DNA of 64,000 nucleotides from Candidatus Omnitrophota bacterium. GTDB taxonomy: Bacteria; Omnitrophota; Gorgyraeia; 2-01-FULL-45-10. The translations under genes were made by a program, and so were the position numbers. Under the pieces are notes generated by a model. It saw only the letters and a program-made list of their open reading frames with translations, did not search any database and was not told the DNA's origin. Positions 1 to 45,889 of the stretch are shown here, piece by piece. Location of the stretch: NCBI GenBank assembly GCA_028715345.1, contig JAQUSB010000003.1:2004-66003 (forward strand), in the 5' to 3' direction. Every line of letters begins with the position of its first letter. The stretch's first letter is position 1.

Positions 1-548
1 AGCATGTCGAGGTGGCGCGTAAATTCGTCGAGCCGCGTCAGTATATAGGGAACGTGCTCTTTTTCTATGTCGCGCCGGACGCCGCCGACTTTCAGCATAG
101 CGTAATTCTGCCTATTGCCCGTGACCGTCTCCATTATATCGCAGATGGGCTCCCTGTATTTCCAGCCCCACATGAATACCGTGTTGTAGCCTAAGAAATG
201 CCCTGCCAGCCCGGCCCAGAGCATATGCGAATGAAGACGCTCCAGTTCCTGCACTATCGAACGTATGTAAAGCGCCCTGTCCGGCACCTTTATCCCGCCC
301 AGGTCTTCGAGCGCCTGGACACAGGTGATCGGGTGGCTCGACGAGCATATGCCGCATATACGCTCCACGATGAATATCGACTGGTCGAAGGTCTTCGCCT
401 CGGATAATTTCTCGATGCCGCGATGGTTCCAGCCTATACGGACATCGACATCTACGACCTTCTCACCCTCGACGACGAGCTTGTAAAATTCCGGCTCTTC
501 CTGCAAGGGGTGATACGGGCCTATGGGTATATGCGCTTTATGGCTCAT
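1..548 (-). CDS. [NiFe]-hydrogenase large subunit, group-4 type (NuoD/EchE/HycE-like), N-terminal part; 3' end lies beyond window start
   Basis: Manual minus-strand translation from ATG at 546-548: MSHKAHIPIGPYHPLQEEPEFYKLVVEGEKVVDVDVRIGWNHRGIEKLSEAKTFDQSIFIVERICGICSSSHP... The RxCGxCxxxH motif is the N-terminal Ni-Fe ligand motif. The ATG overlaps the upstream gene's stop as ATGA. Not in the ORF track because it runs off the window edge. Confidence 0.75.
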   Translation of the reverse strand, partial: MSHKAHIPIGPYHPLQEEPEFYKLVVEGEKVVDVDVRIGWNHRGIEKLSEAKTFDQSIFIVERICGICSSSHPITCVQALEDLGGIKVPDRALYIRSIVQELERLHSHMLWAGLAGHFLGYNTVFMWGWKYREPICDIMETVTGNRQNYAMLKVGGVRRDIEKEHVPYILTRLDEFTRHLDM

Positions 549-1012
549 GCTTTCCTCGAATCTCTTTTGGGGACTATGAAATTCTTCCTCAAAGGGTAAA
601 CGCCCGTCGGCCAGTCATCGGGAAGAAGGAGCGGCCGCAGGTCGGTGTTGCCGTCAAAGTGTATGCCGAAAAGTTCATGCATCTCCCTCTCTATCCACCA
701 GGCCGATCTAGTTACACCAGTTATGGTGTCTATATGCGGGTCCTCTTTTTCTTTAATTATAGCGCGGAGGGAAACGACAAACCCGGACGCGTCTTCGGCG
801 AAATGGTAAAGCACTTCTATCGCGTCGAAATCATCGACCGCAGTGGCAATGGCAAATCTCAAGCCGAGCTCTTTGAACATATATTTAGTTAATAACACAA
901 TATCTTTCGGGTAGATGTCGACATAGGCGCGTTTCTCGTTCTTCTTCTCGGCCTTTATCACCTTCGACCCGAATTTATTCCGGATATCGCTTAAAATGTC
1001 ATCGATCTTCAT
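545..1012 (-). CDS. NuoC-like (complex I 30 kDa subunit family) hydrogenase subunit
   Basis: 155 aa. Resembles NuoC/EchD-type subunits of group 4 hydrogenases. Sits between the small and large subunit genes. Confidence 0.65.
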   Translation of the reverse strand: MKIDDILSDIRNKFGSKVIKAEKKNEKRAYVDIYPKDIVLLTKYMFKELGLRFAIATAVDDFDAIEVLYHFAEDASGFVVSLRAIIKEKEDPHIDTITGVTRSAWWIEREMHELFGIHFDGNTDLRPLLLPDDWPTGVYPLRKNFIVPKRDSRKA

Positions 1013-1013
1013 A

Positions 1014-1439
1014 TTATTTTTTCACCGTTATTTTATCGACTAGCTTTTTCATGCCCGCTATTATGGCTTCCGGTTTCGGCGGGCATCCCGGTATATACAC
1101 ATCCACAGGCACTATCTCGTCCAGAGGAGCGCCCGTATTGTAGCTGTCTTTGAATACCCCTCTCGACGAGCCGCACGCGCCCCAGGCCACGACGAACCCC
1201 GGCTTCGGCATCATCTCGTACAGCTTCTTTATGCGCGGCACGCAAAGCCTGTTCGTCGATCCCGTACATATCAGGACATCGGCGTGCTTGACGCTGCCGA
1301 CCATGATTATGCCGAAGCGTTCCAGGTCGTATCTCGGCGTAAGCGTGTCGAGAAATTCTATGTCGCAGTTATTGCAGCTGCCGCTCGAAAGATGGAACGC
1401 GTATATCGATTTGGACAATACCTTCTCTTTAAATCCCAT
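1014..1439 (-). CDS. [NiFe]-hydrogenase small subunit, NuoB-like (20 kDa family)
   Basis: 141 aa. Cysteines in NuoB/EchC-like spacing: SCNNCD...CTGS...ACGS...PGCPP. This is the proximal 4Fe-4S signature. Confidence 0.75.
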   Translation of the reverse strand: MGFKEKVLSKSIYAFHLSSGSCNNCDIEFLDTLTPRYDLERFGIIMVGSVKHADVLICTGSTNRLCVPRIKKLYEMMPKPGFVVAWGACGSSRGVFKDSYNTGAPLDEIVPVDVYIPGCPPKPEAIIAGMKKLVDKITVKK

Positions 1440-1440
1440 T

Positions 1441-2382
1441 TTACCTTCCTAAATATGCCAGCGCCGCCGCGATCACGGCGAGCGCGGTAACCGGCCCCCA
1501 GAAAAATTTCACGGCGTGGTCTATCCTTACTCTCGGGTTCGTATTTTTTATCACGACGATGAGCGCAAGTATTATCACGTATTGGATAACGGTCCTGATA
1601 ATGCCTTCAGAGCTGAATGTTATGCCGCCGAAATAAAGTATTATCATCAGGATCGGCAGCGCGAATAGCATTACCGCTTTTGCCAGCTTGAATATCCCCA
1701 GCGCTTTGCCGGAATACTCGATATACGTACCGGCCATTATCTCTGTCTCCGCCTCGGCTATGTCGAACGGTGTAAAACCGAGCTTCGCCTGGACGCACAA
1801 AAGCATTACAATGAACGAAATAACCCCGGAAGCGCTTGCGATCGTATTGCCGTTTGCGGCCTGATGCATCATTATATCACCGAGCCTTATCGCGTAACCA
1901 CTCTTTATTACGGGCACGAGCACCGCTATCACGAACGGCAGTTCGTACGACAACATGAGCTTCATCTCCCTGGAAGCGCCCAGCGAAGCGAGCGGGTTCT
2001 CCGACGCAAAGCCTCCGAGCATCAGGCTTATCGCCGGGATCATTAAAAGGTATATGACGACTATGAGGTCGCCTATGAATCCGGATCCCGGCGCAGGGCT
2101 TATGACTAGGATCATCGTCGAGACGAGCGTCGCGCTTGCCAAAGACAATAGCGGCATCCCCAGAAATATCGCTTTCGAAACGCCTTCCGGTATCAATGTC
2201 TCTTTATAAAAGAGCAGTTTTATCACGTCGAGAAAATTCTGGTACCACGGCGGGCCCACTCTCCATTGGACACGCGCGGTAAGGCGCCTGTCCACCCATC
2301 CGGCGAAAAGCCCCATAGTCGCGGAGAACGCGAAGCCGGGGAAAACCAGGAACAGGAATAAATATTCCAATATCTTCATCAT
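1441..2382 (-). CDS. Membrane subunit of hydrogenase, NuoH/HycD/EchB-like
   Basis: 313 aa, polytopic hydrophobic protein. Size and helix pattern fit the NuoH/HycD family. Adjacent to the hydrogenase subunit genes. Confidence 0.6.
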   Translation of the reverse strand: MMKILEYLFLFLVFPGFAFSATMGLFAGWVDRRLTARVQWRVGPPWYQNFLDVIKLLFYKETLIPEGVSKAIFLGMPLLSLASATLVSTMILVISPAPGSGFIGDLIVVIYLLMIPAISLMLGGFASENPLASLGASREMKLMLSYELPFVIAVLVPVIKSGYAIRLGDIMMHQAANGNTIASASGVISFIVMLLCVQAKLGFTPFDIAEAETEIMAGTYIEYSGKALGIFKLAKAVMLFALPILMIILYFGGITFSSEGIIRTVIQYVIILALIVVIKNTNPRVRIDHAVKFFWGPVTALAVIAAALAYLGR

Positions 2383-2409
2383 AAGTTATCCGTAATTGTA
2401 TCCACAATT

Positions 2410-2435
2410 GTAGGTCACCCTTAAGGGTGACCTAC
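2410..2435. repeat. 26-nt perfect palindrome, copy 1: gtaggtcaccc-ttaa-gggtgacctac
   Basis: Perfect inverted repeat overlapping the stop codon of the ferredoxin gene. Lies 28 nt upstream of the NuoH-like start. No U-tract follows. Confidence 0.6.
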
Positions 2436-2953
2436 TGCTGAGGGATCCGCTTCTTTACCGGGATCGTTTCTCCGATCCCTCTTTCCCATTTGAAATTCGT
2501 CTTGACGAGCAGATTTTCCGATATCTTGAAAATATTTTCTTCTTTATTCTCGTCGAACTCGCCGAAACGTATCCCGCCGTGACTGCACATCTCCAAACAT
2601 ACCGGCGATTGCCCCTCCTGCAACCTGCCTAAGCAATAGTCGCAGCGCGCTATAACGAAAGGTATCGTCTCCGGATAAATGACCCCGAACGGGCAGGCGC
2701 GCGAACAGCTCTTGCACGAAGTGCACCGCATCGAGTAGCGCTTCAACGCGTTATACGGCTGGAATTCGAGCGCTTTCCACGGGCACGACGCGACGCACGG
2801 TGAGTCCTCGCACCGCCTGCAGACAAGCGCGAAGTGCGCGAATTCAAGAAGGCTCAGCACGCCGTTATTCGACGGGTGCTGGATGTAGCTGCAGACCACG
2901 CCGCATTCCCGGCAATTCAGGCATATGTCCAGATCTATGAGCAGTCTCTTCAT
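2432..2953 (-). CDS. Poly-ferredoxin, 4Fe-4S clusters (HycB/HyfA-like electron transfer subunit)
   Basis: 173 aa with four Cys clusters: CLNCRECGVVC, CRRCEDSPCVASCP, CTSCKSCSRACP, CDYC...C...C. Confidence 0.6.
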   Translation of the reverse strand: MKRLLIDLDICLNCRECGVVCSYIQHPSNNGVLSLLEFAHFALVCRRCEDSPCVASCPWKALEFQPYNALKRYSMRCTSCKSCSRACPFGVIYPETIPFVIARCDYCLGRLQEGQSPVCLEMCSHGGIRFGEFDENKEENIFKISENLLVKTNFKWERGIGETIPVKKRIPQQ

Positions 2954-3772
2954 TTAATCCCAGATCTTCTGCAGATCCTTTATCTTGTCGTAAGTGAACA
3001 CAGGCCCGTCCTTACACGCGTAGTAAGGCCCTATTCTGCAATGGCCGCATTTACCGATACCGCACGACATATTCTTTTCCATCGACAAATATATGGCGCT
3101 CTCCTTTATACCGAGGTCGAGAAGCTTGAACGTGACGAACTTCATCATTATCGGAGGGCCGCATACTATCGCTGCGGTATTATTTATGTCGACGAGGCCG
3201 GGCTTCAATACGGTGGTAACCAGGCCTACGTTCCCTTTCCATGTATCGTCGCCCACATCCACGCTCACTTCTATGTCTATGTGCGGTGCTTTCGCTTTCC
3301 AGGAATCTATCTCATTCTTAAAAACTATATCTTTGGGCGAACGCGCGCCGTATTTCAACACTATCTTTTTGTAATCGTTGACCTCGTTAAATAGCGCGTA
3401 TAGAAGCGCCCGCAACGGAGCCAGGCCTACGCCGCCGCCCACTATGAATAATTCTTTCCCCTTAAAATCTTTCAGCGGATAACCGAGGCCGTAAGGACCG
3501 CGGACACCGACGATGTCCCCTGCCTTCGCCTGGTGCAGGAGGCCGGTGACCCTGCCTGTGCGCATTATGGTAAAATCGAGAGTGTCCTTGGAATTGTGGT
3601 TCGATGAAGGCGTGAACGGCGCCTCGCCTATGCCCGGCATCGTCACGTCCATGAATTGGCCGGCGCGGAACCCTATCTCGGTCCGCGGCTTGAGCGTAAA
3701 AGTCTTTATGTTATGCGTCTCTTCTACGACTTTCAATATCTCGGCTTCTGTATATGCGTACGGATTAGTCAT
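2954..3772 (-). CDS. FAD/NAD(P)-binding oxidoreductase with C-terminal 2Fe-2S, sulfhydrogenase gamma (HydG) / AsrB-like
   Basis: 272 aa. Ferredoxin-NADP reductase-like fold motifs: RAGQFMDV and GGGVGLAPL. C-terminal CGIGKCGHC...C cluster, as in PyrK/HydG/AsrB. Confidence 0.65.
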   Translation of the reverse strand: MTNPYAYTEAEILKVVEETHNIKTFTLKPRTEIGFRAGQFMDVTMPGIGEAPFTPSSNHNSKDTLDFTIMRTGRVTGLLHQAKAGDIVGVRGPYGLGYPLKDFKGKELFIVGGGVGLAPLRALLYALFNEVNDYKKIVLKYGARSPKDIVFKNEIDSWKAKAPHIDIEVSVDVGDDTWKGNVGLVTTVLKPGLVDINNTAAIVCGPPIMMKFVTFKLLDLGIKESAIYLSMEKNMSCGIGKCGHCRIGPYYACKDGPVFTYDKIKDLQKIWD

Positions 3773-4814
3773 TCGGCGGTTTATTCCATTTTCCCAAAAC
3801 GAGCCCTTTTAAGACTTCGCGCAGGTCTATATCGCCCGGGCAAGCTTCGATGCACCTGCCGCAGCCCGTGCACGCGAAATAATTCAATACTTCCGGGAAG
3901 AAATCGAACTTCTTCTCGAACCTGTTGCGCAGGCGCTCATATAACTGCTTCCTGGGGTTCGCGCCCCCGGCGACCCTGGCAAATGTATTGTAGAGGCAGG
4001 CATCCCACATCCTGAAACGCTTGTTCCCTGCCGCCGTCTTCTCGTCGAATAAGAGGAAGCAGTGGCACGTCGGGCAGACGAGGTTGCACGCCCCGCATTC
4101 GACGCACGTGGAGGCGAAGTCCTGCCATAACTGCACCAGGTTATAATTTTTCTTCACGGCGCCTTTTATCTGGGCGGTATTCTGTGTTCCCCTTTTATCG
4201 ATAAAATACTGCACTTCCCTGGTAACTTTTTCGCGGTTGGCCTGCCTTTTATTGAGGTCTGTAGCCGTATGCGGTTTGAAGAACATCCTGAAATTATTTA
4301 CAAGCCTCTCGCCCGCGGCGCTACCTACTTCGACGATGAAATGGTCATTTATACCGGACAGGTTTATATCGAAATATTTTTGCGGGTAAGGCGCGCCTTC
4401 CATCGCCAGGCAGAAGCATGTCTCTTTGGCGTAAGTGCAGTCTGTACCTATAATGAGGGTGTTTTTCCTGTTCTCGGCGTAAAAGGGATCCTCGGCGTCG
4501 CCTTTTAAAAATACGAAATCCTGCAGGATCAGGCTCGACAGGTCGCAGCCCTTCACCCCGGCTATGATAACCGGCTTCTTTTCTTTGGGTTTGCCGTCAA
4601 GGATCTTTTCTCTGGCGGGATTTATAAAGCTCTTTAAGGGCTGCGTCTGTCTGATGCCGCCCAACTCTATATCGCTTTCTTTTCCTGGATCGAACTCGCC
4701 GAAATGCAGCCTTTCCCCTTTAACGTAGGGGACGAAAATCCTATGCTCGGAAGACAACCTCGTGAATAGATCGTACAGATCTTTTTTGGTGATTTTGTAA
4801 ATTTTTTTCTCCAT
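3765..4814 (-). CDS. Iron-sulfur subunit, sulfhydrogenase beta (HydB) / AsrA-like
   Basis: 349 aa. Motifs CVECGACNLVCPTCHC and CTGCGRCIEACP. The HydB/AsrA family is always paired with the gamma/B subunit. Confidence 0.6.
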   Translation of the reverse strand: MEKKIYKITKKDLYDLFTRLSSEHRIFVPYVKGERLHFGEFDPGKESDIELGGIRQTQPLKSFINPAREKILDGKPKEKKPVIIAGVKGCDLSSLILQDFVFLKGDAEDPFYAENRKNTLIIGTDCTYAKETCFCLAMEGAPYPQKYFDINLSGINDHFIVEVGSAAGERLVNNFRMFFKPHTATDLNKRQANREKVTREVQYFIDKRGTQNTAQIKGAVKKNYNLVQLWQDFASTCVECGACNLVCPTCHCFLLFDEKTAAGNKRFRMWDACLYNTFARVAGGANPRKQLYERLRNRFEKKFDFFPEVLNYFACTGCGRCIEACPGDIDLREVLKGLVLGKWNKPPND

Positions 4815-4888
4815 AACTTCTCATAGTGTAAGTATTTATTTTAGAACGCGCCGCAGGTTAAGTCAATTCAATTTTAGATACATTACCC

Positions 4889-5296
4889 CTAAAATTTTAC
4901 GACCATGGCCCTGGGCGGGCATGCCCTTACGCACAGCTCGCAAGCGATGCATTTGTCGGAATCGAACAGCACCTTCATCGTCTTTTTGTCTATATAGAGC
5001 GCTTCTGTGGGGCATACGGATATGCAGGCGCCGCACTGCGTGCACCTCGATTCGTCCCTGGTCACATCCTTGCTCAAAGGCTGTATCTTCACGCCGAGGC
5101 CTGTAAGGTATTTTACGCCAGCGACGTAATTTTCCTTTTTGCCTTTCAGCTCCAACACCATGAGCCCTTCTTCCTTGGGCGTTATCTTGGCCTGTAGAAT
5201 GTTAAAAACGAGGTCAAAATCTTTGACAAGCTTATAAACTATCGGCTCATCGACCAATTTGTGCGGAAAAGTAAGTACTATTCTTTTGGATACCAT
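4889..5296 (-). CDS. NIL-domain / 4Fe-4S ferredoxin fusion protein
   Basis: 135 aa. N-terminal NIL-like domain, then CTQCGACISVCP and CIACELCVRACP. Confidence 0.55.
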   Translation of the reverse strand: MVSKRIVLTFPHKLVDEPIVYKLVKDFDLVFNILQAKITPKEEGLMVLELKGKKENYVAGVKYLTGLGVKIQPLSKDVTRDESRCTQCGACISVCPTEALYIDKKTMKVLFDSDKCIACELCVRACPPRAMVVKF

Positions 5297-5327
5297 GTCA
5301 AAACCTCCCTCATGTTAAAACCTCGGC

Positions 5328-6047
5328 CTATATTAGCTTTATTTCTCCCCAGCTTCCTAACTTATCGCCTATTATTATCAAAACGCCTTTAACGCCTTCT
5401 ATCGAGCGGGCAAGATCGATACCTTTTTTTATATCGTCGCCGCTCTTCACGGCATTCCCCGCCACCGTGGCGGCGGCGTCGGCAAGGGCTGCGCTATCCG
5501 ATACGATGAGGGCCGCGTCGGCATTGCCGAAACTCAATGAGTGGCTGACGGTGCCGCTCGACGTGCAGACGCCTAAGCCCTTTTCACTCAGGCCTATCTC
5601 TATGGCGAGATTGCCTGTGAAAGGCGATCTATCGCCGGCGTATATGCCCATCTTTCTTGTTTTCGCGGACCTGATAAATATGTCGCCGCCGTTCTCCACT
5701 ATCACTTCGTCCGAGAAGGCCATAAGGTCCCGCCCGACGAACTCGGCTACCGCGCCCGCGACAGCGGCCATCGGCCCTACGCCTGCTTTCGCCGCGGCAT
5801 CGGCCATGGCCTTAATGATAGCGGGAGCATTATCCTTAAGATCCACCGGCGCCAACGATGTATAAAATTCCGGGTCTTTCCGGATATACCGTTCTATGTC
5901 TGCCCTGCATGCCAGTATCGATCCGCGGGCCTGGTCCGTCAAATTCCTGGCGGCCATTATAAAAAGATCGGTCTCCCTCTCTTTCACCTCGAAAGAAACG
6001 AGATCCTCGGAATCGACCCAATCCCTGTATGCGCGTTCTTTGAACAT
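5328..6047 (-). CDS. Uncharacterised protein, UPF0280/ApbE-like superfamily (tentative)
   Basis: 239 aa, Ala/Gly-rich. Family assignment is from recollection only. Confidence 0.3.
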   Translation of the reverse strand: MFKERAYRDWVDSEDLVSFEVKERETDLFIMAARNLTDQARGSILACRADIERYIRKDPEFYTSLAPVDLKDNAPAIIKAMADAAAKAGVGPMAAVAGAVAEFVGRDLMAFSDEVIVENGGDIFIRSAKTRKMGIYAGDRSPFTGNLAIEIGLSEKGLGVCTSSGTVSHSLSFGNADAALIVSDSAALADAAATVAGNAVKSGDDIKKGIDLARSIEGVKGVLIIIGDKLGSWGEIKLI

Positions 6048-6053
6048 ATTATT

Positions 6054-7058
6054 TTAGCATATCCTGGGCAATTGTTCACCCGATAGCATATCCACAAGCC
6101 TGCGCCCGCCTGCCGCCGTATTTAGGCAAACTTTGCCCTTCTCTTCTTTAGTGATTTCCCCTATGATGTTCGCGCGCTTTCCGTTCTTATCTTTGCGGAT
6201 GATCTTCAATATTTTGTCCGCCTCTTTTGCCGCCGCGATAAAAATAACGCGCCCTTCGCAGGCAAGATAGAGCGGATCAAAACCCAAAAGCTCGCACGCC
6301 TGCCCGACGCCGTCACTGACAGGGACGGCTTTCTCGTCCAGAGCGATCCCGAACTTATGCGATGCCGTGATCTCGTTAAGCGTCGTGGCAACGCCGCCCC
6401 TCGTCGGATCTCTCATGAATTTCACGCTCGTCCCGGACGCTTTCAGGACTTTTTCGATAAGCCTGTTCAAGGCAGCCGAGTCGCTCTTTACTTTTGTTTT
6501 GAATTCAATGCCTTCGCGCCCAGACAGGACGCTTATAGCGTGTTCGCCTATGGGCCCGCTTACGATAACTTTATCTCCTGCCTTTATCCTATCGGGCGAA
6601 AGTTTATCGTAATATATCTCGCCCAGCCCGCTCGTATTTATGAAAATCTTGTCACAGCTTCCCCTCTCGACCACTTTTGTATCGCCGGTCACTATGCTTA
6701 CGCCTGCTTTTTCGGCTGCCGCGGCGGCGGACCTTACTATCTTTTCCAATATGCTTTTATCGAGCCCTTCTTCTATTATGAGGCCGAACGAAAGGTGTGC
6801 CGGGCGGGCGCCGCATACCGAAAGATCGTTCACCGTCCCGTGCACAGCGAGGCTGCCTATGTCCCCTCCCGGGAAAAATATCGGGTTAACAACGTATGAG
6901 TCCGTCGTGAACGCTATCCGCGTTTTGCCTATCGTCAATATCGCGGAATCTTTTTTCTGGCGCAGTATATTATTATCGAATTCCTTCATGATTACAGAAT
7001 CGATGAGCTTATGCATCAATGTCCCGCCGCTGCCGTGGGAAAGCGTTATCTTGTCCAT
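6054..7058 (-). CDS. hypE: Hydrogenase maturation carbamoyl dehydratase HypE
   Basis: AIR-synthase-like fold (MDKITLSHGSGG...). Ends with the conserved C-terminal PRIC motif. Start moved to the internal ATG at 7056-7058, because the longer ORF would overlap hypD by 68 nt. Confidence 0.8.
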   Translation of the reverse strand: MDKITLSHGSGGTLMHKLIDSVIMKEFDNNILRQKKDSAILTIGKTRIAFTTDSYVVNPIFFPGGDIGSLAVHGTVNDLSVCGARPAHLSFGLIIEEGLDKSILEKIVRSAAAAAEKAGVSIVTGDTKVVERGSCDKIFINTSGLGEIYYDKLSPDRIKAGDKVIVSGPIGEHAISVLSGREGIEFKTKVKSDSAALNRLIEKVLKASGTSVKFMRDPTRGGVATTLNEITASHKFGIALDEKAVPVSDGVGQACELLGFDPLYLACEGRVIFIAAAKEADKILKIIRKDKNGKRANIIGEITKEEKGKVCLNTAAGGRRLVDMLSGEQLPRIC

Positions 7059-7062
7059 TTTA

Positions 7063-8145
7063 TTATATCCTGCCCCTGTATTTATAATACGCCGCGCACG
7101 CCCCTTCGCTCGACACCATACAGGCGCCAACGGGATGCTCCGGGGTACAAAGTTTCGCGAACAATTTGCACTCGGGCGGCGTCTTCACTCCCTTTATTAC
7201 TTCGCCGCATATGCACGCCTTGTTTTCCTTCGGCGCGGCTATCTTCGGTTTAAATCTCGCCTCGGCATCGAATGCGCCGAATTCTTTTCGTATTTTTAAG
7301 CCGCTCTTTTTTATGCATCCTATACCGCGCCACGAAGAATCGTCAGCCTCAAAAACTTTATCGATGCTGTTTTTCGCTAATCTGTTCCCCGACTTCGTTA
7401 TTATCCTCGTATATTGTATCTCGATTTTCGGAGTCTTTTGTTCCAACAGCATCAATATCGCCTGCAATATATCGAGCGGCTCGATCCCGGCTACAACGCA
7501 GCGTTTCCCTCTTTTAGTCAAAAATCGATACGGCGCCGTCCCTATTACCGCGCTGACGTGGCCCGGTAGTAAAAATCCGTCTATATTAAGCTTCGGCTCT
7601 TCGGTCAGGGCCTTCAATGCCTCAGGCATCGTTTTATGGCCGCAGAGGACGGAGTAATTTTTCAATTTTTCTTTTTTTGCCGCGATAATAGACTGCGCGA
7701 CCGTCGGCGCCGTCGTTTCAAAACCTATCCCTAAAAATATCACCTCTTTATCCGGGTTTTTCTTTGCCAATTCAAGCGCGTCCATACTCGAATAGACCAT
7801 TTTTACTGCCGCGCCGCGGGCTTTTTCCTTATCGAGGCTCGAATGCGAGCCCGGCACCCTGAACATGTCGCCGAATGTCGCGATAATAGAATCTTTCCTT
7901 CGGGCAAGCGCTATCGCTTTATCGATGAACTCATTCGGCGTAACGCATACCGGGCATCCCGGGCCGGATATGAGGTTGATGTTCCCGGGCAATATGCCGC
8001 GCAAGCCGAAACGGAATATGCTCATCGTGTGCGTACCGCACACTTCCATGAAATTGTACCCACGGCGCGGATCCGCCTTCGCGCGTATCCGGCCGGCGAC
8101 TTTGTCTATGAGCCGCCTATTTCTGAATTCGTCTATGTATTTCAT
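7063..8145 (-). CDS. hypD: Hydrogenase maturation factor HypD
   Basis: 360 aa. Motifs CGTH, GPGCPVC and CPVC characteristic of HypD. Confidence 0.85.
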   Translation of the reverse strand: MKYIDEFRNRRLIDKVAGRIRAKADPRRGYNFMEVCGTHTMSIFRFGLRGILPGNINLISGPGCPVCVTPNEFIDKAIALARRKDSIIATFGDMFRVPGSHSSLDKEKARGAAVKMVYSSMDALELAKKNPDKEVIFLGIGFETTAPTVAQSIIAAKKEKLKNYSVLCGHKTMPEALKALTEEPKLNIDGFLLPGHVSAVIGTAPYRFLTKRGKRCVVAGIEPLDILQAILMLLEQKTPKIEIQYTRIITKSGNRLAKNSIDKVFEADDSSWRGIGCIKKSGLKIRKEFGAFDAEARFKPKIAAPKENKACICGEVIKGVKTPPECKLFAKLCTPEHPVGACMVSSEGACAAYYKYRGRI

Positions 8146-8148
8146 TTT

Positions 8149-8355
8149 TTACAGGTCTTTTAACGCGCGGAGAGTCTTACGCGCTTCGCTTTCTTTGAGT
8201 TTCTCGATCGCGAATCCCGCGTGCATGAGGATGTAGTCACCCGGCCTCGCCGTCTTCATCAGCGAGAAGTTCGCTTTTTTGCGCAAGCCGCCGGATTCGA
8301 CGACCCCATCGTCACCGTCTATCTTTATGACCTTCATCGGTATCCCTAAACACAT
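8149..8355 (-). CDS. hypC: Hydrogenase maturation factor HypC/HupF
   Basis: 68 aa. N-terminal MCLGIP motif. Confidence 0.8.
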   Translation of the reverse strand: MCLGIPMKVIKIDGDDGVVESGGLRKKANFSLMKTARPGDYILMHAGFAIEKLKESEARKTLRALKDL

Positions 8356-9470
8356 AGTGCCCTCGTATTCGCTATCGCTATCTGCCCTATCGGTATGCCG
8401 ATATCGTTCACCGGAACGCTTCTTGGCGGATACACCTCCAGGCCTTTTGCCCTCAGCCCTTCCACCGCCCTGGCCGTAAGATATTTGTTCTGAAAAACAC
8501 CGCCGGACAACACGACTTTCTTCGTCTTAAACCGCTTGCTTAAGCCCGCCGATATTTTCACGATAATATCCGCTATCGTATTGTGAAATTTGCACGCGAT
8601 AACGGCTTTGTCCGTCTTTTTTGCCAGGTCTTTAACTACCCCTTTTATCAGCGGGGAAGTCTTTATTATAAGCTCTTTTCTTTCTTTTCCGATATCAAAA
8701 TCATACTTATCGCGGCAGCCCGTCCGGATCGTCTTTTCCAGCTCTATCGGCAGCTCGGCCTCCCGCGTAACGCGGTCTTTGGCTAAAATAAGGCTCGCCG
8801 CGCCGTCGAACAGCCTGCCCGCGCTCGACGTAAGCGGAGAATTTATATTTTTATCGATCATTTTCTTTATCACAGACGCGTCGGCGCGGTTTCGTTTCTT
8901 TACAATGGTCATGAACTTGGGGCCGAATGCGCCATACAGGTAACTTACGGCCATGCGCCACGGCTGCCTCACCGCCATATCTGCGCCGGGCATCGGATAA
9001 TATTCCAGGTGAGCGGCCCTGGTAAAGCCTTTCAGCGAGCCTGCAAAAAATTCACCGCCCCAGATATTTCCGTCCGTGCCGTAGCCCGTGCCGTCGAAAG
9101 CGACGCCTATCACGTCTGCTTTTATGTCATTGTCCGCGATCGAGGAAGCGATATGGGCTTCGTGGTGCTGTATCCTGCAAAGCCTCGTTCCTTTGGTTTT
9201 AAGCTGTAAACTCTCGGCGAAATGCGTCGAAAAGTAATCCGGATGAAGGTCGCAAGCTATCACCTGCGGTTTTATGCCGAATTTTTTGCGGTACAGATCG
9301 ACTTCGGCGGAATATCTCTTAAAATTACCGAGCTCGCCCAGGTCGCCGAGATCGTACACGAGGAACGCGTCTCTGCCGGCAGCCAGGGCAAACGCGCCCT
9401 TCAGGTCGGCCCCGCAGGCAAGTATCGGTTTTTTCACGCTAAACGGCAGCTTCATCCGTCGAGTAACCAT
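8346..9470 (-). CDS. hypF: HypF-like carbamoyltransferase, Kae1/YgjD-like C-terminal domain only (truncated architecture)
   Basis: C-terminal HypF motifs CDLHPDY and LSGGVFQN...VP.NDIGI..GQ. The acylphosphatase, Zn-finger and YrdC parts are absent. Probable start is ATG 9468-9470 or 9453-9455. The ORF track's longer GTG start at 9713 would run through the palindrome-rich intergenic region. Confidence 0.6.
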   Translation of the reverse strand: MVTRRMKLPFSVKKPILACGADLKGAFALAAGRDAFLVYDLGDLGELGNFKRYSAEVDLYRKKFGIKPQVIACDLHPDYFSTHFAESLQLKTKGTRLCRIQHHEAHIASSIADNDIKADVIGVAFDGTGYGTDGNIWGGEFFAGSLKGFTRAAHLEYYPMPGADMAVRQPWRMAVSYLYGAFGPKFMTIVKKRNRADASVIKKMIDKNINSPLTSSAGRLFDGAASLILAKDRVTREAELPIELEKTIRTGCRDKYDFDIGKERKELIIKTSPLIKGVVKDLAKKTDKAVIACKFHNTIADIIVKISAGLSKRFKTKKVVLSGGVFQNKYLTARAVEGLRAKGLEVYPPRSVPVNDIGIPIGQIAIANTRALCV

Positions 9471-9910
9471 GGTAATATTATAACAAATCACCGTCCCGCG
9501 GAGGGGAAAATTTTTCGCTGCCCCGTAAAAGAATTCCCTCGGGATTGTGCCTCGCGTGGACGCGCAATTTTCAACCATGTGAAAATTGCGCTCGGTAAAA
9601 TTTCTCGTACGCTGCCTCGAAATTTTAACGCCCCGCTCGGCACGAATCCCTGCGGAAATTCTTTTCACCGGAGATCGAAAAACTTTTTTTACTAGTGTAG
9701 AGAAAATTTTCACTTACACGGGATGGCAGAACTTTTGGGTGGTGCCGGAGCGAATCTTGAAATTTTCGATACCTTATGCCGATGCAGGCTTTACCATCGA
9801 AAATTTCACGACAGTGAGCGAGGATGGCTTCTTCCTTCGCGAACGACGAGCGGAGGCACCACCCGAAAGTAAATGCCTGACTGAGGTGAAAATTTTCTCG
9901 GAGCGAACCC
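9471..9910. promoter_or_regulatory. Intergenic region with about 9 copies of the self-complementary motif GAAAATTTTC (variants GAAATTTTC, GAAAATTTC)
   Basis: Motif copies near 9509, 9572, 9581, 9597, 9620, 9703, 9760, 9801 and 9890. Contains a 12-bp-stem hairpin 9562-9591 (gcgcaattttca-accatg-tgaaaattgcgc). No credible ORF. Lies upstream of the hypF start and downstream of the pdaD stop. Confidence 0.4.
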
Positions 9911-10480
9911 CTAGAAGAGAAACACTGCCGCGGCGACTACCGTGGAATAATTGCCGTCCGGGCCGACTACGGCGGATTGGGTGGTATTTGACGTGCGGAT
10001 GATCTTGTCGCTCAGCTGGTATATGGCCTTATTCTCGTCCCACGACTTATCCTCGTCGAATTCGAGGCCGAGGGTCGACGCCAACATTTCTACCGCCAGG
10101 TCTTCGGCGAGGTCCCCGGCCACTTTTTCGCTCTGGCCGAAGGCGTGGTGCTCGCTCAAGTACCCGTAGGCCTGCGGATCCGCCGGGACGGCACAGCCGA
10201 TCGACGCCGCGATAAGGCGGTGCGGCTCGTTGCCGTTGCACCTGGACATTACTGCATACGTTATCATCCCGGGATAAAGTTCTTTTAAGCCTTCGTTCCT
10301 GGAAACGACTTTGCACTCGGGCGGTAGTATGCTCGAGACATGGACGAGGTTGCACTTCTCTATACCCGCGTCGCGCAGAGCAAGCTCGAAGCTCCTCAAT
10401 TCCGCCTTGTGGGTGCCGACACCTTTAGTGAAGAACATCTTTTTGGGAACAAGCAGGTTTTTCCTGGGAACTAATAGCAT
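9911..10480 (-). CDS. pdaD: Pyruvoyl-dependent arginine decarboxylase
   Basis: FTKGVGTHK...SFELAL..AGI...[11 protein letters not shown] matches the PdaD family, including the serinolysis site region. Paired with the agmatinase gene. Confidence 0.7.
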
Positions 10481-10486
10481 CGCATA

Positions 10487-10596
10487 CCTTTCAAGTTTAT
10501 TCAGCCTAGGGTTAGCTAAGTGCCGATATCTCCGATATCGGCCAAGTTTATTCAGCCATAGGGTTAGCTAAGTGCCGAGGTCTTTAGACCTCGGCC
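10487..10596. repeat. Two tandem copies of a 52-bp unit, each ending in a short hairpin
   Basis: Unit: agtttattcagcc(t/at)agggttagctaagtgccga plus hairpin. Hairpin 1 is ccgatatc-tc-cgatatcgg. Hairpin 2 is ccgaggtc-ttta-gacctcgg, followed by a T-rich tail on the plus strand. Confidence 0.5.
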
Positions 10597-11480
10597 TATT
10601 TCTTTCCGTAGAATATATAGCCCAACAGCCTGTAAATAAGTTTCGCAGCGAAAAAGTCCGACGCTACCTGCCCTTTTATCGGGCATAGCTCCACCACGTC
10701 GAAACCCACCACCTTCTTGTCTTTAGCGACGTCCCTGAGAAGGTCGAGCACTTCATACCATCCCAACCCGCCCGGTTCGGGCGTCCCGACCGCCGGCATA
10801 AGCGCGGGATCGAAAACGTCAAGGTCTATAGATATGTACACATTTTCCGCAAGAGAGTTCGTGACCTTGTCTTTCCACATCGGCGTATCGAGTATATCGT
10901 AAACATCTATGGTCTTGACCTTGGCGCCCGGTCCCTGCGAGGAGAGAAAATCCTTCTCTTCCTTCGATATGCTCCTCATCCCCACCTGCACTAGCGGGCA
11001 GATCTCGCTGATCCGCCGCGCCACACAGCCGTGATTGAGTTTCGAACCGAAATATTCATTCCTGAGGTCGTTGTGCGCATCGAGATGCAGGACCGAAATA
11101 TCGGGGTATGTCTCTTTGAAAGCCTTCACCGCGCCTACGGAAACGGAGTGTTCGCCTCCGAGCATAACGGGGAACTTCCCTGCCTTAAGGAGCTCCAGGG
11201 TCGACGAATAGACTTTCGCTACCATCTCCTCCGGACTGAGCTTTTCGACTTCGAGAGGCTCCGCTGTATGGATGCCTATCTTGAACGTTTCCTGATTTAT
11301 TTCGTCGTCGTACAGCTCCAGATACCTGGAAGCGTCTATGATAGCGGCCGGGCCCGAAGCGGTGCCGTGGATATAGGTCGTCGTCTTATCATAAGGGGCC
11401 TGCATTATAGCGACCTTGGCCTTTTTAAAACTGGAATATTCGTCCGGGAGAGCTATGAAATTTTTATTTGTCTCGTCCAT
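10596..11480 (-). CDS. speB: Agmatinase (arginase/ureohydrolase family)
   Basis: 294 aa with arginase-fold Mn-binding motifs: GGEHS, DAHNDL, SIDLDVFDPA. Confidence 0.75.
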   Translation of the reverse strand: MDETNKNFIALPDEYSSFKKAKVAIMQAPYDKTTTYIHGTASGPAAIIDASRYLELYDDEINQETFKIGIHTAEPLEVEKLSPEEMVAKVYSSTLELLKAGKFPVMLGGEHSVSVGAVKAFKETYPDISVLHLDAHNDLRNEYFGSKLNHGCVARRISEICPLVQVGMRSISKEEKDFLSSQGPGAKVKTIDVYDILDTPMWKDKVTNSLAENVYISIDLDVFDPALMPAVGTPEPGGLGWYEVLDLLRDVAKDKKVVGFDVVELCPIKGQVASDFFAAKLIYRLLGYIFYGKK

Positions 11481-11481
11481 T

Positions 11482-12513
11482 TTAACCCTGCATCAGTTCC
11501 GACACGCGCCGGGTGGTTTCAAAAACTTTTTGCGCCGATTTTTCATCAAGGGTGCCTACTCCGCAGGATGGTGTAATCAAAGACGACACTACTCCTTTTT
11601 CAATTCCCTTGGTATGTAAAATCTGCATCCAGGCTTTTAACGCTTGCGTAATAATTTCCGCCGAATTTTTTTCTACGGCGTTCGAACTGGGGACGATGCC
11701 CCACGCCACAGCGCTGCCCCGCTCGAAAAATCCTTTTAATTCCGCCGCATACAACAAAAACTCTTTTGTAAAATTATAGGCGTCAAAATTTATTATGTCA
11801 ATACCTCTTTGCAGAAGGAACGACCAATCCGTATTGCCGCAGCAGTGCACACCGCACAGAGCGCCTTCCTCTTTAACGGCGCCTGCAACTTCTTCCAGAA
11901 TACCCGAAGCCAGCGCCTGGTCCATCATGACATACCCGGAGCCGAAGGATATCAGGTACGGCTCGTCGAGAAAAATTATTACATTGGGCGATAATTTCTT
12001 AAGCTGCCTTATCTGCCATCTGGCCTTCATGGCGAGAACTTTGGTCAGGACTTCTACCAGGTCTTTGTTATAAAATATGGATTCCTTATTCTGGTTCGTA
12101 AGCGTCATGGCATAGCTTATGGGGCCCGTTATATGCCCTTTGACGAATTTGGTTTCTTTAGGCAGGAACGCCTTCCTCCTTAAAAATTCATAAAAGCCCG
12201 CGGCATATTTTTCCGATATCCCGAAAAAATCGACATCCCCGTCGAGATATTTCCCGTACACCTTTTCGATATCGCCCATTATATCGGCCGTATCGACATG
12301 CACGGTTTTTTTGATCTCGTCCACTACGATGCCGGGTATATTCTCGGAATACTGGACGTACATATTTTCCAGATATGACAGGCGCGAAAGCTGTGGCCAG
12401 AACGGTATGGACGGGAAATTATCGAATATTACGTCGCAGGCCGCTTTCGGGTCTCTGAAAGGGACAGAGCCTATCCCTGTTGCCTCAAAATTGAATTTCA
12501 AGCCTTCTCCCAT
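11482..12513 (-). CDS. MetE/UroD-superfamily methyltransferase (cobalamin-independent methionine synthase C-terminal-domain-like)
   Basis: 343 aa, TIM-barrel-like. Possible Zn ligands at GVHCCGN and SCGVG. Confidence 0.4.
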   Translation of the reverse strand: MGEGLKFNFEATGIGSVPFRDPKAACDVIFDNFPSIPFWPQLSRLSYLENMYVQYSENIPGIVVDEIKKTVHVDTADIMGDIEKVYGKYLDGDVDFFGISEKYAAGFYEFLRRKAFLPKETKFVKGHITGPISYAMTLTNQNKESIFYNKDLVEVLTKVLAMKARWQIRQLKKLSPNVIIFLDEPYLISFGSGYVMMDQALASGILEEVAGAVKEEGALCGVHCCGNTDWSFLLQRGIDIINFDAYNFTKEFLLYAAELKGFFERGSAVAWGIVPSSNAVEKNSAEIITQALKAWMQILHTKGIEKGVVSSLITPSCGVGTLDEKSAQKVFETTRRVSELMQG

Positions 12514-19577: not shown

Positions 19578-22500
19578 TTAACCGGGCCGCAGGACTTTTA
19601 TCGGGCTCTTCGTTATGTCTCTTTGAATGCGGCTTATTTTAAGTTCGCCCCTCGGTTTATCTATATCGTCCGGCAGGACCAATTTGTTCTTGGCCAGGGA
19701 AGCTCCTAAAACGCCTTCCATAGCCTGGCGCAGCATCCAGCCTGCCGCACCCGTATAGCCGTGCCATATCATGCGCCCCTGGTCGAATGTGGTCAGGATG
19801 TCGGCCGATTGTTTATTAGGCTGCCCGCCGTACAGCTCCACCTCTTTTACGCGCGGTATCGGCGAAACTTTGAGCCACAGCCTGTACGAAGTCTTTCTAT
19901 ATTCATCGGCTTTGGCGCGGTCGCCTCTGCGGTCGAATTCTTCGGCGATAAGGCGCGCCGCCCTTACAAGCCACTGGACTCCGTGGCAATACATACCGTT
20001 CTCGCGCACGCCTTCCGGATATTTGCTGCTCCTGCCGAGATACGGCTTGGTGTCTTCGCGCAGGGCCGGCCACCCGAGGAGGATAGCGTTCTCCCTCTCC
20101 AGGACGTCCAGCGCCGTATTGAATACCGTCAGGCCCCTTTCGAAATTGATGCCTGCTTTCACCGCCCACGACGCCGTCAGCGCGTCTATCTCCCAGACGC
20201 CGCTTCCTTTTATGCCTATCTCCGTGCCGTCGTCATGGAACGCGCGCAAATACCTGTCGCCTCTCCACGTCTTCTCGAGGCTTGTTTTAAGATCTTCCAT
20301 CCTCTTTACGTAATACGCTTTTTTCTCCTTGCCTTCCTTCATCTCTATGATATTGACCATCTCTTTCAGGATATAATAAAGGAAGAAGCCGAGCCATACG
20401 CTCTCGCCCTTGCCTTCGCTTCCTATCTCGTCGAGCCCGTCGTTCCAATCGCCCGTCTGGATAAGCGGCAGCCCGTTCTTGCCGGTCCTGTCCTTTAAGA
20501 TGAGGTCTACGGACTTCATGCAGTGCTTGTATATGGTGTCGGATCTCGTCGTCCTGTGGTACAGATGCCCCCAGCCCTGCTTGTTCTTCGGGAGCTTCGC
20601 GAACGGGAATTGCGATATGACGTACGAGGCCATCTCGTCGAGTATCGACGTATCGCCCGTCGTCCTTATATATTCGACAACGCCCCAGACAAGCCATACA
20701 GGATTGTCGGAAGCGTGGGACCTGCATGAGAACGCAGTCCGTCCGTCCGTCAACGTAAAGAACCAGTGGAAGACGTCGCCTTCGATGAACTGCTGGGAGG
20801 CGTGCAGTATTATCTGCTTGCGCGCCAGCGCCGGATCGACCCATATGAGGTTGACGGTATCCTGCAGCTGGTCCCTGAAACCGTAAGCGCCGCTCGTCTG
20901 GTAGAACCCGCGCCTCGCCCATATACGTTCGGCAAGGGCCTGGTACTTCAGCCAGTCCTGGTAGCGGTCGAATTCGGGCTTGTTCGTTTCGACTTTGAGC
21001 GTATCCATAAGGCCGAGCCACCACTTCTTTGTCTGGGCCAGGCTCTTACGTACCTCGTCCACGTTCTTATATTTTCTGATTATTTTATCCGCTTCTTTCC
21101 TGTCGTCGCATTGGCCCATTACGACCGACATGGTATGCTCTCCGTGCGCGGGTATAGTGACCTCCTCCAGGAACGCGGCCACCTGCGAAATATCGCCGAA
21201 ACATTTCCTGTCGGATGAGCCTTCTTTTACCATATACGGGCGCACGACATCGCCGCCGCATCCGAAGAACTTGCCGCGGCTCGTTTCGACCGCAGGCGAC
21301 TTCATAGAAGTGGAAACGAACGCCCATCCTGAGCGGAAAATGTTACGGGGGTTATTGAAGAATAACGACCCGGTCGACCTTTGATATTTCATCATCAGCG
21401 GGCCGGCCCGTTCGGGCTGGAATCCCAGCACCATCTGGAAATACGGGACAATGCGCAATTTCTTGTCGCGGTCCGAATTATTCTTCACCGTGAGCAGATA
21501 TAAACCTGCAGGGTCGTCCGGCGGGACAAATACCGTAAGCTCAGTCGAAACAGAACCGCGGGCCATACGGAAGATAGCGGTCCCGTCGACGCTGAACTCG
21601 GATTCGCATCGGGCGCTCTTATCGCGGAGCGGCAGATACGTCGGCGAGTACCAGTCGTTGCCGTCCGGGTCGTACAGGTAGAACGCTTCCGTCGGTATCT
21701 CTTTTGTGACTATGTCCGGCCAGTCGGGCGTCAGCCTGTTCTGCTGTGAATTACCGTTAGAGGACGTGTGAAGCCCCCTGTTCGTGACCATGATCGAATG
21801 GACTGCGTTAGATACGGCATGGTCGATAGGGCGCGGCGTGAAGGGCGTATGGACGACCAGTTTTTTGCCGTCCTGGCTGAACGTGGAATACGGCTGCGGC
21901 GTCCCCGGGGGGATCTCGCCGTGGCCGATAAGGACAGACGCTTTTTTGGCCGCAGCGGCCGCTTTCGCTTTGGGCGCGGCGCTCTGGGGCTTCAGATGTT
22001 GGGCGATCAATTCGAGAGCCGTCTTCTTATTTTTCGTAAACCCTATCATGAAGCGTACCTTCACTGAAGCCTTCGGAGCGATCTGTGCATTGACTGCAAG
22101 GCTTCCTATAGGATCGAATGTCGGATACGGGTTCGTATCGCGCGCCGTCAGGAAATTGAGCGTCTCGAGTATTCGCGGCGACCAGATACTGCGCACGCGG
22201 CCGATGAAATCGACTCGTGAAGTGAGGAACCCTTCCGGCGCGGCATCGCTGGCCAGGATACCCATCGTCTTCGCGCTCTTCTGGTACGCGAGCACGGCGT
22301 TGGAAGAACTTACGTATTCCATCTCCGGATATAACCTGGCGTATTGCGTATGGAACCTGTCATGGATACCGCCGACAAGCACCCATTCAAGGTACGGGAC
22401 CACTTTAAGTTCCCTCGCCTTGTCCGTGGTATTTTCGAGAGTGACTTCCCATATCTCGGCGTTGCTTTCTTTATCCGGCAGGCTTATCTTTATATTCGTC

Positions 22501-45656: not shown

Positions 45657-45889
45657 CACTATCTCCTTAATTTGCTTTATATACAAAGATATTTAACTTT
45701 TCATTTATTTACAGAATGTGTTTAATTCTATCATATATAAGGAAGGTCGTCAACCTTCAAAAACTAACTATTTTATATTTTAATTTTACCGGCCTCCGCT
45801 TCGTAAACCGCTTGGCAGGATTTACGATAGCAGAGGCCGATCACTACCGGGGTGGCACCGCGGCAGTGTTTAAATATTATCGCGGGTCG
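45657..45889 (-). promoter_or_regulatory. AT-rich intergenic region: probable promoter and 5' UTR of the 1883-aa gene and 3' end of the giant gene
   Basis: 233 bp with no ORF. AT-rich 45660-45780. Weak inverted repeat cggcctc...gaggccg at 45789-45838. Confidence 0.3.

Follow-up and report, generated by a model that had tools for sequence, protein, structure and literature searches.

A short HypF in a hydrogenase maturation operon

The window analysed here is a stretch of 64,000 nucleotides (nt) from contig JAQUSB010000003.1 of a Candidatus Omnitrophota bacterium (assembly GCA_028715345.1). Its minus strand carries a short hypF gene, which encodes the carbamoyltransferase domain of the hydrogenase maturation protein HypF alone. 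An earlier, sequence-only reading had proposed that only the Kae1-like part of about 370 amino acids (aa) was present, with hypC, hypD and hypE intact downstream. Both points were borne out: the protein contains PF17788 and PF22521 and matches the TIGR00143 profile over positions 381-740/741, and the three following genes are intact, lie on the hypF strand and score above their family cut-offs. The genes concerned are:

8346..9470 (minus strand): short hypF, 374 aa, the Kae1-like (ASKHA-fold) carbamoyltransferase domain of HypF alone
8149..8355 (minus strand): hypC, 68 aa, its start overlapping the hypF stop; PF01455, TIGR00074
7063..8145 (minus strand): hypD, 360 aa; PF01924, TIGR00075, 459 bits
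6054..7130 (minus strand): hypE; TIGR02124, 442 bits; C-terminus ...PRIC

The hypF open reading frame (ORF) runs from an ATG at 9470 to a stop at 8346, and its longest version (455 aa) begins with a GTG at 9713. On the 455-aa version, PF17788 (HypF_C) spans residues 94-194 and PF22521 (HypF_C_2) residues 203-444; these are the only Pfam domains found. The score against TIGR00143, the NCBIfam hypF equivalog, was 262.2 bits, below the whole-protein cut-off of 466.1 bits. In a tblastn search with E. coli HypF (750 aa, from NC_000913), the sole match in the window placed HypF residues 378-743 at 9467-8355. The closest solved structure by sequence, 3VTH, aligned with the short HypF from end to end over residues 395-746. 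Hidden Markov models (HMMs) of the TsaD/Kae1/Qri7 families scored below their thresholds (TIGR03723, 35.4 vs 296; TIGR00329, 28.6 vs 208), so the protein is not a TsaD. Compared with canonical HypF, the PF00708 acylphosphatase, the two PF07503 zf-HYPF motifs and the PF01300 YrdC-like domain are absent. The Kae1-like domain with its His-His-Asp-Asp site and nucleotide motifs is present, as is the association with hypC, hypD and hypE, including a HypE that ends in PR(I/V)C. The gene thus has the features of a truncated HypF, namely a Kae1-like domain alone, a start at the YrdC/Kae1 boundary and a place in a hyp operon directly upstream of hypC.

The corresponding NCBI protein (P0001, 363 aa, 'hypothetical protein PHI58_01170') apparently starts at a GTG 11 codons inside the ORF (9437-9470) and therefore loses L8, P9 and F10. 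Because these three residues, numbered from ATG 9470, are invariant or nearly so among homologues, the true start is taken to be ATG 9470 or ATG 9455. Most members of the short-HypF family are likewise named 'hypothetical protein', because they score under the TIGR00143 cut-off.

The active site and the fold of the short HypF are preserved. H475, H479, D502 and D727 of E. coli HypF, which are metal ligands as reported by Petkun et al. 2011, align with H102, H106, D126 and D356 (the E. coli motifs HHHAH, LDGIGMG and AGDGG start at 475, 501 and 725). A check of the Kae1-domain metal ligands had been suggested in the sequence-only reading; when 26 homologues were aligned (mean column identity 59%), none of the four residues varied, nor did the DGxGxGxDGxxWGGE block or the SGGVxxN nucleotide motif. 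The AlphaFold2 model had a mean predicted local distance difference test score (pLDDT) of 90.9 and a predicted template modelling score (pTM) of 0.90. Foldseek superposed it on the Kae1 domain of 3VTH, the HypF of Caldanaerobacter subterraneus, and of 3VTI, the HypE-HypF complex, with a template modelling (TM) score of 0.90-0.91 and a root-mean-square deviation of about 2 Å. The ratio of non-synonymous to synonymous substitution rates (dN/dS) was 0.11-0.23 in six orthologue pairs; short hypF is under purifying selection. Judged from its sequence, short hypF is a real, functional-looking, working gene and neither a pseudogene nor an assembly artefact.

The region upstream of the start codon contains three features that bear on the missing N-terminal part:

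9477..9485 (minus strand): promoter-like element of the extended -10 type, TGTTATAAT, with its end 6 nt upstream of the hypF ATG
9471..9910 (minus strand): pdaD-hypF spacer, 440 bp, with nine copies of the palindrome-like GAAA(A)TTT(T)C at a spacing of about 20-90 bp
11482..12513 (minus strand): X343, a gene for a MetE-like 'core methionine synthase'; ancestrally it lay immediately upstream of short hypF

The promoter-like element has the consensus TGnTATAAT. TGnTATAATATTA is invariant in the window and in three related loci (L017, L015 and L024), ends 6-11 nt upstream of the hypF start codon in these four sequences with no Shine-Dalgarno sequence, and is flanked by spacer that is otherwise unalignable. 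A simple sigma-70 scan did not list the TGTTATAAT element, because a -35 match is lacking. Because the element ends only 6 nt from the ATG, the arrangement suggests an extended -10 promoter and a predicted leaderless or near-leaderless hypF mRNA in the sub-clade of the window. The element occupies exactly the place that a coding sequence for the N-terminal domains would need. The GAAA(A)TTT(T)C motif gave 21 overlapping pattern matches (nine sites) in the spacer, compared with a mean of 1.4 per 440-bp window and 7 in the next-best one. Similar palindrome-like motifs occur in the equivalent spacer of L015, and the array may be a putative operator array for some regulator.

An HMM of the N-terminal module (acylphosphatase, Zn fingers and YrdC; 399 positions) was built from seven full-length HypFs, namely those of E. 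coli, Thermus, Parabacteroides, Acaryochloris, Sulfobacillus and Streptomyces and HypF2 of C. necator. With filters off, it found no match among the six-frame ORFs of the window and six related contigs (best E = 0.8), and tblastn with E. coli HypF residues 1-385 found nothing matching in the window (best E = 0.49). No stand-alone YrdC or acylphosphatase gene was detected in the window by Pfam (ORFs scanned) or by the module HMM. Overall, neither the 64-kb window nor the 10-kb flanks of short hypF in 30 loci contained acylphosphatase, Zn-finger or YrdC sequence, this search covering the 27 short loci of the genome scan described below together with L003-L008. By tblastn and by the module HMM, which drew a blank in all frames, neither the 440-bp spacer nor any other part of the window holds a decayed N-terminus. 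The end of X343 falls between -35 and +83 nt relative to the hypF start in 12 loci, which leaves no space for an N-terminal module. The same short architecture recurs in 29 further loci with differing upstream contexts, which excludes a local indel or assembly gap.

Candidates for a separately encoded partner were also considered. A gene of 554/575 aa between hypC and hypD was rejected, as it encodes a signal peptide, has the look of a secreted glycosidase and occurs in two loci only (L003 11339-13003; L023 11276-13003). This secreted protein has no Pfam match and shows a distant likeness to a 648-aa protein of L042. When the YrdC fragment of L082 was used to search for N-terminal-only HypFs in Omnitrophota, 27 short fragments were all that came back. 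Contigs were examined for two of these fragments, P0244 and P0265, and both proved to be pieces of frameshifted full-length genes in long-read assemblies.

The client of the maturation genes is a group-4-type [NiFe]-hydrogenase operon that follows on the same strand:

3..4814 (minus strand): group-4-type [NiFe]-hydrogenase operon, comprising
3765-4814 (minus strand): sulfhydrogenase beta-like gene
2954-3772 (minus strand): sulfhydrogenase gamma-like gene
2432-2953 (minus strand): ferredoxin
1441-2382 (minus strand): NuoH-like gene
1014-1439 (minus strand): NuoB-like small subunit
545-1012 (minus strand): NuoC-like gene
3-548 (minus strand): hydrogenase large subunit, 5' part, the remainder lying past the window edge

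Complete orthologous large subunits keep RICGICS and DPCYCC, that is, all four Ni-Fe cysteines in both CxxC pairs, and the PRIC terminus of HypE is kept in 24 of 25 orthologues. The terminal cysteine of HypE is the residue carbamoylated by HypF. Because the Ni-Fe cysteines and the PRIC terminus are both kept, the client is a real [NiFe]-hydrogenase and the cell continues to need S-carbamoylated HypE. In the hydrogenase, NuoH, NuoB, NuoC and the large subunit form a complex-I-like membrane module, which is joined to FAD- and NAD(P)-binding beta and gamma subunits of sulfhydrogenase/AsrAB-like type; in related loci an antiporter-like subunit follows the large subunit. The closest matches of the large subunit in other phyla come from Endomicrobiales and WOR-3 (L094, L048), where hypF is full length. 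Group 4g [NiFe]-hydrogenases have been reported in Omnitrophota, with HypF unmentioned (Seymour et al. 2023, PMC10066038).

Distribution and descent of the short form

A search of the protein database yielded 6,692 relatives, the best 120 of which (52-100% identity) all have 352-407 aa and contain PF17788 and PF22521 only; wherever a taxon name was given, it was Candidatus Omnitrophota/Omnitrophica. A scan with one genome per GTDB species followed, and its best 80 loci were cleanly separated by the N- and C-terminal HMMs. A short HypF with no N-terminal module within 10 kb was found in 27 of them, comprising 23 Omnitrophota-labelled genomes and four 'uncultured Planctomycetia' metagenome-assembled genomes (MAGs). 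The remaining 53 loci, from WOR-3, Bacillota, Isosphaeraceae, Bryobacterales, Actinomycetota and others, all contain N-terminal module sequence and are mostly complete full-length genes, the exceptions being explained by a contig end, masking (L086) or a frameshift.

Gene order is conserved and co-directional across the 30 short-hypF loci. It runs X343 - short hypF - hypC - hypD - hypE - [hypA] - UPF0280/COG2122, continues with NIL-ferredoxin - sulfhydrogenase beta/gamma-like - ferredoxin - NuoH - NuoB - NuoC and ends with the [NiFe] large subunit and the antiporter-like subunit. Three upstream contexts of short hypF occur among these loci. In the deeper-branching loci (L026-L040) X343 abuts hypF, with a biotin operon (bioB, bioU-like, bioF, bioD) upstream. 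In the sub-clade of the window, pdaD (pyruvoyl-dependent arginine decarboxylase) and an agmatinase gene (9911-11480) are inserted between X343 and hypF. The third context is lpxC-fabZ-lpxI (L003, L016, L023).

In a neighbour-joining (NJ) tree of Kae1 domains, computed with no bootstrap, 28 short forms made up one clade nested among full-length HypFs. HypF1 of C. necator fell outside it, together with E. coli HypF and C. necator HypF2. Read from this tree, the three upstream HypF modules were probably lost in a single event basal to a large Omnitrophota clade, and the truncation is a separate event from that of HypF1 because HypF1 groups with E. coli HypF and HypF2. The HypF of one Omnitrophota-labelled MAG (L082; JAHJUB010000120.1, 2-1408) keeps the end of the YrdC domain, where the contig is cut, and groups with Bacteroidales HypFs outside the short clade. 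The short form is thus not universal in the phylum as labelled at NCBI; so either not all Omnitrophota have it, or the L082 copy would be horizontally acquired.

Some apparent short forms outside the clade proved artefactual. P0389 (L097), the only one checked in a 50%-identity library, is a frameshifted full-length gene, and the size of the short family therefore cannot be read from protein length alone. An apparent half-YrdC HypF on a WOR-3 chromosome (L086) is due to masked Ns. The loci L095, L096 and L097 come from long-read metagenome assemblies (ERZ250395xx) in which full-length hypF is frameshifted and hypD is split too.

The closest known parallel is HypF1 of C. necator (Ralstonia eutropha) H16, a protein of 394 aa encoded in the hypA1B1F1CDEX operon of megaplasmid pHG1. 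Like the short HypF, it consists of the Kae1-like domain alone with the same boundary start (PVLACGAWLKN in HypF1, PILACGADLKG here), keeps the HHxAH, DGxGxGxDGxxWGGE and C-terminal Asp motifs, and lies directly upstream of hypC-hypD-hypE. For HypF1, a requirement for externally supplied carbamoyl-adenylate has been put forward as a proposal only (PMC9100943). C. necator is an aerobe with O2-tolerant hydrogenases of groups 1/2/3, and HypF1 (L002:2035-3219) shares its replicon with the full-length HypF2 (L012:1247-3706). In contrast, the Omnitrophota short forms belong to anaerobes with a group-4 hydrogenase and are found in 27 or more genomes at species level, and no full-length partner is known for them. 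Wolf et al. 1998 reportedly found either HypF1 or HypF2 alone to be enough in the native host. HypF1 is the only described Kae1-only precedent, and from the tree the Omnitrophota form is apparently the second, independently evolved one.

Relative to the canonical four-domain HypF (3VTH), the Kae1-like domain is homologous over its full length, with 38% identity in the structural alignment and a TM score of 0.91. The metal ligands, the operon partners and the HypE acceptor motif are common to both, whereas some 380 residues are gone, which in canonical HypF make up the acylphosphatase, both Zn-finger motifs and the adenylating YrdC-like domain. The TsaC/Sua5 and TsaD/Kae1/Qri7 proteins of threonylcarbamoyladenosine (t6A) synthesis are a two-protein version of the same chemistry, in which a YrdC-fold enzyme makes an acyl-adenylate and a Kae1-fold metalloprotein uses it; this split is the architecture that the short HypF would need. 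There the substrate is threonylcarbamoyl-AMP and the acceptor A37 of tRNA, whereas for HypF they are carbamoyl-AMP and the HypE cysteine. TM scores of 0.51-0.58 were obtained for the short HypF among the strongest TsaD/Kae1 matches listed. In the O-carbamoyltransferases TobZ/NodU/CmcH, a Kae1-like domain passes on the carbamoyl moiety of carbamoyl-AMP made by a YrdC-like domain of the same chain (PMC9633730), so that, unlike the short HypF, they keep both domains together. PF02543 appeared only as a 'faint' precomputed match in one short-HypF homologue.

Source of the activated carbamoyl group

In canonical HypF, the acylphosphatase converts carbamoyl phosphate to carbamate, and the YrdC-like domain converts carbamate and ATP to carbamoyl-AMP. 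The reading we favour, with a probability of about 0.6, is that the short form is a functional single-domain HypF passed on by vertical descent, for which a protein encoded elsewhere makes the carbamoyl donor in trans. The short HypF would carry out only the final HypF half-reaction, in which the carbamoyl group passes from carbamoyl-AMP to the HypE cysteine. The donor might be supplied by a stand-alone YrdC/Sua5-family enzyme or by an unlinked HypF N-terminal module, in a hand-over that would parallel the passing of threonylcarbamoyl-AMP from TsaC/Sua5 to a separate Kae1/TsaD. HypE would dehydrate the carbamoylated product to a thiocyanate, the source of the cyanide (CN) ligands, and the Fe(CN)2CO unit would be assembled on HypCD for the adjacent group-4 [NiFe]-hydrogenase. 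Both the carbamoyl-transfer activity itself and the in-trans source of the activated carbamoyl group are inferred, the source by analogy with t6A synthesis.

Several points weigh against supply in trans. Canonical HypF reportedly channels carbamoyl-AMP internally, as described by Petkun et al. 2011, whereas free carbamoyl-AMP would need to persist while it diffuses. A search within 10 kb in the 30 loci turned up no trans-acting donor enzyme, and HypF activity in Omnitrophota is itself inferred from sequence comparison. The claim that the short form is the sole HypF draws on the neighbourhoods of +/-10 kb and on one published annotation table, in which genome #104 has TIGR00072-75, TIGR00100, TIGR02124 and TIGR00057 and no TIGR00143 (source data of Seymour et al. 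2023, PMC10066038). These families stand for a protease (TIGR00072), hypB (TIGR00073), hypC (TIGR00074), hypD (TIGR00075), hypA (TIGR00100), hypE (TIGR02124) and Sua5/YrdC (TIGR00057). Row 104, on the assumption that the indices of the tables match, is GCA_000954095.1, Ca. Omnitrophus magneticus SKK-01, with an estimated completeness of 98-100% (PMC10066038). This annotation argues against a full-length HypF in SKK-01, where the short form is unconfirmed, and is compatible with a split N-terminal gene. In E. coli, HypF1 seemed to lack activity under anaerobic conditions, and it interfered with the host's own HypF (PMC9100943), which counts against the reading because the Omnitrophota are anaerobes, and the 'unusually truncated' HypF1 failed to complement an E. 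coli delta-hypF strain (PMC5350229). The vertical descent of the short form, finally, is taken from a tree that lacks bootstrap support values.

The sequence-only reading had allowed for a degenerate gene, and for a sequencing gap or indel hiding the N-terminus. Neither suggestion held, and a pseudogene, an assembly truncation or a mis-called start is extremely improbable. Its other suggestions, a split HypF or second hypF elsewhere in the genome and a non-canonical synthesis of the cyanide ligand, may still apply, with no partner gene found within 10 kb in the 30 loci. Some 'short HypFs' in the databases are indeed artefactual (the frameshifts of P0389/L097, P0244/L095 and P0265/L096; the masking of L086), but the 30 loci come from independent assemblies and share the same domain-boundary start in three upstream contexts. 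No N-terminal remnant is left in any frame, and the promoter-like element is conserved at the start codon. The invariant ligands, the dN/dS of 0.11-0.23, the confident model and the conservation throughout the lineage all speak against degeneration. The selection and the ligands are also as expected of a working enzyme, which tells against the improbable view that the short form is a redundant or accessory copy, one that assists or modulates HypE while a full-length hypF elsewhere does the essential chemistry. C. necator, with HypF1 and the full-length HypF2 on one replicon, provides a model for that view, and the YrdC part in the HypF of L082 is in its favour. However, among the best 80 loci no genome prefix had both a short and a full-length copy, a weak point since the patterns searched for limited the scan; genome size is small (about 1.4-3 Mb; Seymour et al. 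table), and SKK-01 has hypA-E with no TIGR00143 match.

The same annotation of near-complete SKK-01 would also suit an autonomous Kae1-only enzyme, which would use ATP and carbamoyl phosphate or carbamate to form its own adenylate, or transfer the carbamoyl group directly to HypE, with no YrdC-type partner. The absence of a partner within 10 kb in the 30 tightly packed loci points the same way, as do the invariant nucleotide-binding motifs and the Kae1/TsaD relatives among the Foldseek targets that crystallise with ATP or ADP bound. We nevertheless consider such an enzyme unlikely. Mutations of the nucleotide pocket of the YrdC site in E. coli HypF reportedly abolish maturation (Petkun et al. 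2011), and relative to the Kae1 domain of full-length HypF (3VTH 395-746) the short form has no new insertion or extra motif. In addition, C. necator HypF1 alone did not rescue E. coli delta-hypF (PMC5350229).

A broader proposal is that the genomes of this Omnitrophota clade lack a HypF-type acylphosphatase/Zn-finger/YrdC module entirely, and that [NiFe]-hydrogenase maturation relies on a carbamoyl group activated in another way. We regard it as a tentative possibility, somewhat short of even odds. The activator would then be a moonlighting housekeeping Sua5/TsaC, an unrecognised enzyme or the Kae1-like domain itself. If this is true, natural CN-ligand synthesis can do without three of the four HypF domains.

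The textbook route to the CN ligands assumes a four-domain HypF with internal channelling of carbamoyl-adenylate. Its exception, HypF1, has been hard to interpret because a full-length paralogue coexists with it and because it is inactive in E. coli. Here the short form is the conserved, selected hyp-operon form in dozens of Omnitrophota species, anaerobes with group-4 hydrogenases, and single-domain HypFs are therefore probably real enzymes and not relics. The idea that truncated HypFs work only aerobically is weakened, since an account of HypF1 by anaerobic inactivity fits poorly with an anaerobic clade that depends on the short form. Hydrogenase-maturation capacity in Omnitrophota has been under-called, because pipelines based on TIGR00143 label short hypF 'hypothetical' or miss hypF. 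A set of small genomes is now available for phylogenetic profiling of the missing carbamoyl-activating partner.

Neighbouring genes and other features of the window

X343 is present in 23 of the 30 short-hypF loci. It has no Pfam or PDB sequence match, a weak match to NF002119 'methionine synthase' and the NCBI name methionine synthase. An HCCG...SCG zinc-type motif is invariant, and the AlphaFold2 model is confident, with the MetE and MesD TIM barrels as best matches; the protein is similar to the 'core methionine synthases' described by Price et al. 2021. With such a MetE/MesD-like Zn TIM barrel, X343 was considered an unlikely candidate for the absent activating enzyme. It occurs near hypF in 21 of 27 short loci vs 0 of 53 full-length ones, and UPF0280 in 19 of 27 vs 0 of 53. 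The association is confounded with phylogeny, because all short forms fall in one clade, and may simply be inherited gene order.

Genes of apparent methionine/homocysteine biosynthesis are interleaved co-directionally with the hyp genes and the hydrogenase operon in about 20 Omnitrophota species (window 3-12513; L015-L040). They are X343 (11482-12513), UPF0280/COG2122 (5328-6047) and an NIL-domain ferredoxin (4889-5296), none of which lies near hypF in the 53 genomes of other phyla. The interleaving could reflect a functional link or just inherited synteny.

Elsewhere on the minus strand, a giant ORF (45890-63988) encodes 6,032 aa with ribulose-phosphate epimerase, HAD hydrolase, histidine phosphatase and two GNAT domains as well as HEAT repeats. 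It is followed by an ORF of 1,883 aa (40035-45686, minus strand) with no Pfam match. Giant ORFs are a known trait of Omnitrophota, for which 'Large ORFs' including some of about 6,000 aa have been tabulated (Seymour et al. 2023, PMC10066038). Another large ORF (19578-25709, minus strand) encodes 2,043 aa, and its orthologue in L005 has GH94 domains of the cellobiose/cyclic beta-1,2-glucan phosphorylase type. Its neighbours are a glucoamylase-like gene, ABC sugar transporter genes and a ROK regulator.

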